This document shows, piece after piece, positions 3,887-5,706 of a DNA stretch of 16,672 nt (its first letter is position 1; every line of letters starts with the position of its first letter). Below the pieces are notes generated by a model that ran no database searches, was not told the DNA's origin, and saw nothing but the letters and a program-made list of their open reading frames with translations. The DNA is taken from IMG/VR virus record IMGVR_UViG_2850767282_000002. One strand, written 5' to 3'. The DNA is from a virus. Its lineage: Duplodnaviria; Heunggongvirae; Uroviricota; Caudoviricetes. The translations under genes were made by a program, and so were the position numbers.

Positions 3887-4102
3887 TTACTCTCCCCGTG
3901 CCGCCTTACGACGGTCCTCTCTGATTTTGAAATACAGGTTAGTCAGATATGTCAGCAGCCCAAACAGCAGACTCCCCAGCACGCCTATTGCCGCCCACTG
4001 AGACGGGGAAACCCTGTCCAGCAACTGCAGGAACCAGTAGCCCGTTCCCACCGCTGACGTGGTGTATGACACACCTGTTGTGATTTTTTCCATCTGGTCC
4101 AT
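3887..4102 (-). CDS. class II holin / pinholin, phage 21 S-like (EssD/EssQ family)
   Basis: 71 aa, [71 protein letters not shown]; dual-start M1/M4 motif, two TM segments and a charged C-terminus, same length as S21. Confidence 0.8.
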
Positions 4103-4120
4103 ACCCCGTTGGATTTGCCC

Positions 4121-5026
4121 CTATATTTCCAGACATCTGTTATCACTTAACCCATTACAAGCCCGCTGCCGCAGATATTCCCGTGACGAGCGATAACCCA
4201 GCGCACTATGCGGATGCCATTCGTTATAATGCTCGAACGCCTCTGCAAGGTTCTTTGCTGCCGTTAACCCGTCTGGTTTGGGCATGATACTGATGTAGTC
4301 ACGCTTTATCGTTTTCACGAAGCTCTCTGCTATTCCGTTACTCTCCGGACTCCGCACCGCCGTGTTCTTCGGTTCAAGTCCCAACATCCGGGCGAACTGG
4401 CGTGTTTCATTAGCCCGGTAGCATGAACCATTATCCGTCAGCCACTCCACTGGAGACGACGGAAGATCGTTGCCGAAGCGGCGTTCCACCGCTCCCAGCA
4501 TGACGTCCTGTACTGTTTCACTGTTGAAGTCGCCGGTAGTCACCGCCCAGTGCAGTGCCTCACGATCACAGCAGTCCAGCGCGAACGTGACACGCAGTCT
4601 CTCTCCGTTATCACAGCAGAACTCGAACCCGTCAGAGCACCATCGCTGATTGCTTTCTTTCACGGCCACTCTGCCTGTATGTGCCCGTTTCGATGGCGGT
4701 ACAGCAGGTTTTCGCTCAAGCAACAGCGCATTCTGGCGCATGATCCGGTAAATACGTTTGGCATTGATCGCAGGCATACCATCAAGTTCTGCCTGTCTGC
4801 GAAGCAGCGCCCATACCCGACGATAACCATACGTGGGCAGCTCTCCGATAACATGGTGTATACGGAGAAGCACATCCGTATCATCAGTGTGACGACTGCG
4901 GCGGCCATCCATCCAGTCATCGGTTCGTCTGAGAATGACGTGCAACTGCGCACGCGACACCCGGAGACAACGGCTGACTAAGCTTACTCCCCATCCCCGG
5001 GCAATAAGGGCGCGTGCGCTATCCAC
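4121..5026 (-). CDS. insD: IS2 OrfB (InsD, DDE transposase)
   Basis: 301-aa ORF with an IS3-family DDE domain (...WCSDGFEF..., ...[11 protein letters not shown]...). Confidence 0.9.
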
Positions 5027-5349
5027 TTTTTTGCCCGTCCATATTCAACGGCTTCTTTGAGGAGTTCATTTTCCATCGTTTTCTTGCCGAGCAGGCGCTG
5101 GAGTTCTTTAATCTGCTTCATGGCGGCAGCAAGTTCAGAGGCAGGAACAACCTGTTCTCCGGCGGCCACAGCAGTAAGACTTCCTTCCTGGTATTGCTTA
5201 CGCCAGAGAAATAACTGGCTGGCTGCTACACCATGTTGCCGGGCAACGAGGGAGACCGTCATCCCCGGTTCAAAGCTCTGCTGAACAATTGCGATCTTTT
5301 CCTGTGTGGTACGCCGTCTGCGTTTCTCCGGCCCTAAGACATCAATCAT
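4984..5349 (-). CDS. insC: IS2 OrfA (InsC)
   Basis: [56 protein letters not shown]...; start taken at the internal Met of the track ORF 4984..5394; A6G motif at the orfA/orfB overlap. Confidence 0.85.
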
Positions 5350-5706
5350 CTGTTCTCCAATGACTAGTCTAAAAACTAGTATTAAGACTATCACTTATTT
5401 AAGTGATACTGGTTGTCTGGAGATTCAGGGGGCCAGTCTACCCGTCTCCCGTTATCCGGAAGCTGACAACAATAACAAAGCCACCAGTTAACTACTGATG
5501 GCTCTGATAACTAATGCAAGCGTCTCAGACGACCCACTGACACTACCGGTGAGTTTAACGATACCTTCCGTTTGACTGGCTCACTTTTTATGATGATGCC
5601 GGTGCATTTATCTCCAGCACCAGACTTTCTATCTCAACGCCATACGTTGCATTTTTGGTAATATCCGTCAGCGTCAGTGCATTTAGTCCCACTGCCAGAC
5701 TGTCTT

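Follow-up and report, generated by a model that had tools for sequence, protein, structure and literature searches.

An IS2 insertion immediately upstream of a phage 21-type holin gene in a lambdoid late region of Shigella dysenteriae serotype 1

The class II holins take their type from S of phage 21, a gene with a dual start that gives both a holin and an antiholin, the active S21-68 form beginning at the residue that matches Met4 of the holin described here (PMC7312051). IS2 is bounded by inverted repeats of 41 and 42 bp, and has a promoter, P(IRL), within the left repeat (IRL), which is weak and repressed by OrfA; the outward-facing -35 element in the right repeat (IRR) takes part in a promoter, Pjunc, that exists only in the transposition minicircle, whose junction spacer of 1 bp results in a promoter spacer of 17 bp (PMC3299598). 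IS2 is also described as supplying the -35 element of fusion promoters, as in IS2-ampC (Jaurin and Normark 1983, as cited in PMC9330008). In Shigella dysenteriae serotype 1 (SD1), the stx-carrying (Stx) prophage is located between sapC and ychK (PMC7819885). Here, we analyze a stretch of viral DNA of 16,672 nucleotides (IMG/VR record IMGVR_UViG_2850767282_000002; hereafter, the window), in which IS2 stands directly ahead of a holin gene of the phage 21 type.

A complete IS2 element next to the holin start codon

The holin gene (3887..4102, minus strand) is an intact ORF coding for a class II (phage 21 S type) protein of 71 amino acids, with MDQMEK at the N-terminus and RKAARGE at the C-terminus, which belongs to the Pfam family 'Bacteriophage P21 holin S' (PF04971), with a score of 112.5 bits (cut-off, 26; E = 9e-33); in NCBIfam, the holin was assigned to no family, and Q (see below) had only matches below threshold. 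Its Kyte-Doolittle profile is strong over a segment of about residues 35-57 and no more than weak over another of about residues 8-30, which would agree with a pair of transmembrane domains, the first weakly hydrophobic (SAR-like), but is not diagnostic of them. A dual start is predicted from the sequence, with Met1 at 4100..4102 and Met4 at 4091..4093. The gene is identical, over 216 of 216 nucleotides, to its copies in intact relatives, i.e., two E. coli prophages (L001 and L003) and phage vB_EcoS-640R1, and comparison with these relatives revealed no inactivating mutation in the ORF. Unlike the holin gene, ydfR diverges slightly from the intact relatives. The identity of the holin gene with these copies, and of the SD1 copies with one another, may reflect either purifying selection or recency, between which it does not discriminate.

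The complete IS2 occupies positions 4110..5440 (1331 bp, minus strand), as found both by reading the sequence and by extracting the element. On the plus strand it starts with TGGATTTGCCCC, in the IRR (4110..4150), which adjoins the holin gene, and finishes with GGGGGCCAGTCTA, in the IRL (5399..5440); its size is that of IS2 and its ends, TGGATTTGCCCC and TAGACTGGCCCC, have the TGG... and the TAG... expected of the right and the left terminal repeat. In E. coli, elements that bear the annotation 'IS3-like element IS2 family transposase' align with all 1331 bp at 99.5-99.6% identity. The product of orfA (4984..5394, minus strand) has an HTH_Tnp_1 domain, and that of orfB (4121..5026, minus strand; 301 amino acids; TAG stop at 4121..4123) has HTH_21, rve (DDE) and rve_3 domains (all Pfam). 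The two genes overlap at an A6G (AAAAAAG) -1 frameshift window, the only one present (5026..5032). CCCGT, on the plus strand, is found twice in the window (4105..4109 and 5441..5445) and once in each of the empty sites of E. coli O9:H10 (L003) and phage vB_EcoS-640R1 (L004), as is appropriate for a 5-bp target-site duplication of IS2. The gap between the right end of IS2 and the holin ATG is 7 bp (4103..4109). The initial annotation had placed IS2 7 bp ahead of the ATG, within a CCCGT duplication and in the same orientation as the holin; when the sequence was read every coordinate was correct, and both the element and the holin gene are on the minus strand. The arrangement of IS2 and the holin is no chance resemblance.

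Removal of IS2 and of one CCCGT from the window gives GGGAGACGGGGTATG, which runs uninterrupted in intact E. coli prophages and in phage vB_EcoS-640R1. The pre-insertion sequence predicted for the junction, CCGGATAACGGGAGACGGGGTATGGACCAG, with a single ACGGG, is present exactly in E. coli O9:H10 and in phage vB_EcoS-640R1, as seen by junction alignment. A comparison with related prophages had been put forward as a check on the reconstruction, which passes it without a mismatch, the GGAG box lying 7 nt ahead of the ATG in both genomes. An 818-bp version of the reconstructed site matches E. coli chromosomes in one piece (98.4% identity), with about 1,325 E. coli genomes counted at a coverage of at least 80%; among phages, five records have at least 80% coverage and four of these are covered in full (vB_EcoS-640R1 and relatives). 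IS2 is also found at three other spots of the same late region in unrelated E. coli (L001, 6012..7240; L002, 7682..8910; L013, 1512..2740), i.e., inside ydfR, in the gap between the SASA esterase gene and iraM, and in the gap between iss and the HNH gene; these different positions in unrelated strains indicate that the region has been hit repeatedly and independently by IS2.

The late region and its distribution in S. dysenteriae serotype 1

In intact relatives, the order of genes is Q, tRNAs, iraM (on the opposite strand), DUF1737, a hypothetical gene, the holin gene, ydfR, lysozyme, Rz and terminase. The map of the window was built from its colinearity with the E. coli O9:H10 prophage, from self-comparison and from the annotation names under the matches. 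The Q-type antitermination gene (11010..11831, minus strand) has 97-98% nucleotide identity to a region annotated as 'antitermination protein'. A candidate late promoter, TTGATT-16-TAGATT (10977..11004), was read by eye; in a consensus scan downstream of Q it fell below threshold, and no late promoter was flagged. Directly downstream of Q are two tRNA genes (10616..10866, minus strand), for tRNA-Arg (tct) and for a tRNA with a CAT anticodon, assigned to Met by ARAGORN; E. coli annotations have a tRNA-Ile at a similar position. The presence of tRNA genes downstream of Q is typical of Stx-phage-like late regions.

The leader between Q and the lysis genes is not continuous in the window. Five IS elements, i.e., IS1 (9812..10579), IS1 (8628..9393), IS600 (7066..8329; target-site duplication ATT), IS1 (5962..6729) and IS2, together with a deletion of 413 bp, lie between Q and the holin gene, and the distance from the Q stop codon to the holin ATG is 6.9 kb, versus 2.4 kb in the intact E. 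coli O9:H10 prophage. The initial annotation held that IS2 cuts the holin off from its late promoter; with five elements intervening, IS2 is only one of the interruptions. The IS1 copy at 5962..6729 has no target-site duplication and the 413 bp are missing from the DNA next to it; they correspond to positions 7896..8307 of L003, and with them the anti-adapter gene iraM has lost its 5' part. Clean 8-bp duplications flank the other three complete IS1 copies of the window (8628..9393, CCGAAGTT; 9812..10579, TAAGGCTC; and 14741..15506, TAAATATC), and a further IS1 extends from 15920 to the window end. About 430 bp of the window (13562..13991), between a DUF968-associated block and the hokD region, could not be aligned to the corresponding part of L003 (12325..12678).

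On the other side of the holin gene, ydfR (DUF1327; 3697..3882, minus strand) is truncated, with 61 codons versus 116 in an intact relative. It is cut after codon 61 by the outer end of an IS600 (1184..3699, plus strand) that is itself interrupted by IS911 (about 2014..3262), and this IS600::IS911 stands in place of the remaining lysis cassette and of the genes beyond it in intact relatives. By tblastn, the L003 lysozyme, Rz, HNH and terminase had no match in the window, which confirms, within the window, the absence of endolysin and Rz genes noted earlier. Thus, the window has a pinholin-type gene but no lysozyme or Rz homologue with which a cassette of pinholin and SAR endolysin could be formed; in intact relatives, the lysozyme has a hydrophobic N-terminus. 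Beyond IS600::IS911 there is only DNA that includes a DUF4376 ORF (201..578, minus strand).

The window matches SD1. The 61-amino-acid product of the truncated ydfR is encoded on 12 contigs, nine of which are longer than 1 Mb, as found by an exact protein search. Both IS2 junctions and an identical holin gene are present in eight of the eight SD1 loci examined (L005-L012) among the matches listed; in one of these, L008, 9,882 nt match the window with 100% identity. The SD1 strains in Table 1 of PMC7819885 include CP061527, CP026777, CP026878, CP026782, CP026786 and CP024466, the strains of these six accessions being HNCMB 20080, 69-3818, 07-3308, 08-3380, NCTC 9718 and BU53M1 (PMC7819885). The IS2-holin junction is absent from 5,426 complete E. 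coli genomes, none of which covered at least 80% of a 361-bp query spanning it, and an initial query of 3.8 kb gave only partial matches in the complete E. coli genomes. An exact 30-mer spanning the IRR and the holin gene had no match in a collection with one genome per species, which is unlikely to contain an SD1 genome; GTDB is suspected to merge Shigella into E. coli. L005 (S. dysenteriae HNCMB 20080) is a hybrid nanopore assembly; its IS2 transposase is split into calls of 119 and 65 amino acids (4546..5584), and 56 gap openings separate the locus from the window, to which it has only 98.6% identity. Assembly error, and not real decay, is the probable cause.

Expression of the holin gene

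The native Shine-Dalgarno (SD) box of the holin gene, GGGAG (CTCCC on the plus strand), is now located at 5446..5450 on the minus strand, as seen in the sequence and in the empty-site alignment. It has an anti-SD pairing energy of -7.4 kcal/mol and lies natively about 7 nt ahead of Met1; the insertion has moved it by about 1.34 kb, in keeping with the earlier estimate that it is stranded about 1.3 kb away, beyond IS2. After insertion, the best SD-like element ahead of Met1 has an unusable spacing. Met4, however, retains 16 nt of native leader, including a weak SD-like run, GGGG (anti-SD pairing, -6.3 kcal/mol), at a usable spacing of 6-8 nt from the scanned 9-mer to the Met4 codon. The view that IS2 severs the holin from its ribosome binding site thus clearly holds only for Met1, which has lost GGGAG. 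The TAG stop codon of orfB lies 18 nt upstream of the holin ATG, and termination-reinitiation is therefore geometrically possible.

The native leader (76 nt; 5440..5515, minus strand) folds with a z-score of -4.3 into two hairpins. In the small one, CUUCCG-GAUAA-CGGGAG (minus strand), the GGGAG box forms the 3' arm, so that the SD would be sequestered; the other is a terminator-like hairpin of 13 bp followed by a U-rich tract (5476..5506, minus strand), now upstream of IS2 and also found in the empty-site relatives. Both are parted from the holin gene by IS2. We take this two-hairpin leader to resemble the start-choice structure of lambda S. Late transcription antiterminated by Q is the established lambdoid architecture, and the hairpins fit a gene dependent on such transcription.

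In the interval from IS2 to the holin gene, a promoter scan detected no sigma-70-like site. The initial annotation had left open that a hybrid promoter might form, in which the outward -35 element of the IRR, paired with a -10 in the flanking DNA, would drive the holin in the manner of IS2-ampC; the IS2 end facing the holin is indeed the IRR, and IS2 is known to supply a -35 (Jaurin and Normark 1983, as cited in PMC9330008). When the minicircle junction was rebuilt, the best pair consisted of a -35, TGGAAA, located 17-22 bp from the IRR tip, and a -10, TAGACT, at a spacing of 17 bp, in agreement with the 1-bp spacer rule (PMC3299598). At the holin junction, however, the -10 slot reads CGGGGT, with one match out of six to TATAAT; no pair with the IRR -35 reached 7/12 and no -10 was found at 16-18 bp; moreover, the resulting transcript would begin downstream of the Met1 ATG. 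The geometry of the junction leads us to reject a hybrid promoter, the chance of which we put close to nil. A terminator scan detected no minus-strand intrinsic terminator within IS2 (4110..5440) or at its right end, and transcripts of IS2 may run into the holin gene. Read-out from IS2, also raised in the initial annotation, may occur as trace read-through, given the lack of a minus-strand terminator within the element and the 18-nt gap between orfB and the ATG.

Such read-through could make the holin the third cistron of an IS2 transcript (orfA-orfB-holin), translated mainly from Met4, either by ribosomes that stop at the orfB TAG or by ribosomes that bind the residual GGGG, with the result that a shorter, active pinholin would be made at a low level and without its Met1 antiholin partner. 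The co-orientation of IS2 and the holin gene, the short gap after orfB, the terminator-free minus strand of the element, the strength and spacing of GGGG at Met4, the intact ORF and the precedent of the dual start of phage 21 S (PMC7312051) are all on the side of this proposal. On the other hand, P(IRL) is weak and OrfA-repressed (PMC3299598), the orfB stop would be reached by few ribosomes because OrfAB requires a rare -1 frameshift, and a pinholin in a window that has no endolysin has no obvious role; we consider rewired expression of this kind unlikely. That the holin has been captured downstream of IS2, the Met4 form being produced without the Met1 antiholin by termination-reinitiation whenever IS2 transcription is derepressed, seems very improbable; if true, however, capture by IS2 would couple a membrane-depolarising toxin to the expression of a transposase. 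A different proposal is that the insertion was favored by selection, as the adaptive taming of a lethal, membrane-depolarising gene in a deregulated prophage. Holins are lethal when expressed, as is established (PMC7312051), IS2 sits at the one spot that parts the SD from the start codon while leaving the ORF untouched, and the same junction recurs in all eight SD1 loci, from separate strains. SD1 is, however, a clone of recent origin whose members have hundreds of IS insertions in common by descent, and the sharing is therefore uninformative about selection; in addition, four other IS elements interrupt the late leader, so that IS2 may have inserted next to a holin gene that was already silent. 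Selected disarmament is in our opinion as improbable as rewired expression.

The reading that we favor, with a probability of about 0.8, is that of a real insertion that forms part of the ordinary IS decay of a dead prophage, the holin gene being a silent relic. A structurally intact IS2 would have transposed, in an ancestor of SD1, into the 5' leader of the phage 21-type holin gene of a lambdoid prophage, duplicating ACGGG (minus strand) between the GGGAG box and the Met1 codon. The 2.4-kb late leader between Q and the holin is broken by four more IS elements, and ydfR is cut by IS600::IS911, the endolysin, spanin and terminase homologues being gone from the window. Because the prophage has been wrecked by IS elements, the holin ORF would be an intact-looking but regulatorily orphaned relic, lacking its own promoter, a hybrid promoter and an SD for Met1, and its sole conceivable expression would be through trace read-through from the weak, OrfA-repressed P(IRL). 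From these features of the sequence, we infer that the holin is silent both transcriptionally and translationally. The genome of S. dysenteriae 1 is known for IS expansion, and IS-riddled prophages are usual in it. Neutral IS decay is the simplest reading of the insertion. The initial annotation had suggested domestication of a lysis cassette; this is not borne out by the truncation by IS600::IS911 in an IS-riddled prophage, for which IS-driven decay is the simpler account.

Significance and relation to described systems

All of the components of the locus, i.e., IS2, the phage 21-type holin family and the IS-riddled cryptic prophages of SD1, are already known, and the locus itself is already present in public SD1 genome assemblies. 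Its significance beyond annotation is accordingly small: it offers a base-exact example of how IS expansion in SD1 dismantles the lysis cassette of a prophage, and it cautions against taking a holin ORF of such a genome for a functional lysis gene simply because it looks intact. The sole curiosity is the coupling of orfB and the holin with a retained Met4 start, from which trace amounts of a pinholin could possibly be made.

The SD1 Stx prophage (PMC7819885) is similar in that it belongs to the same organism, has had its lambdoid late region likewise put out of action by IS elements, is conserved among SD1 strains and, for its part, is non-inducible. We considered whether the window might represent this prophage and rejected it: the neighbors differ from sapC and ychK, no stx genes were noticed, and the window adjoins instead the DUF4376 gene and an ABC-3 metal-transporter operon. 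Because of these neighbors, the locus is, as judged from the sequence, another cryptic lambdoid prophage and not the Stx one. Cassettes of the phage 21 S or essQ-ydfR-rrrQ type share with the window a PF04971 holin of 71 amino acids with Met1 and Met4 starts. In the intact relatives the holin is followed by ydfR, lysozyme and Rz, whereas the window keeps only the holin and 61 codons of ydfR; in addition, the SD and the SD hairpin of the window are displaced by IS2. The IS2-ampC fusion promoter involves the same element, with the IRR toward the downstream gene and a 5-bp target duplication. Here, however, there is no usable -10 at the needed spacing and the insertion lies 7 bp from the ATG, so that IS2, instead of creating a promoter, has removed a ribosome binding site.
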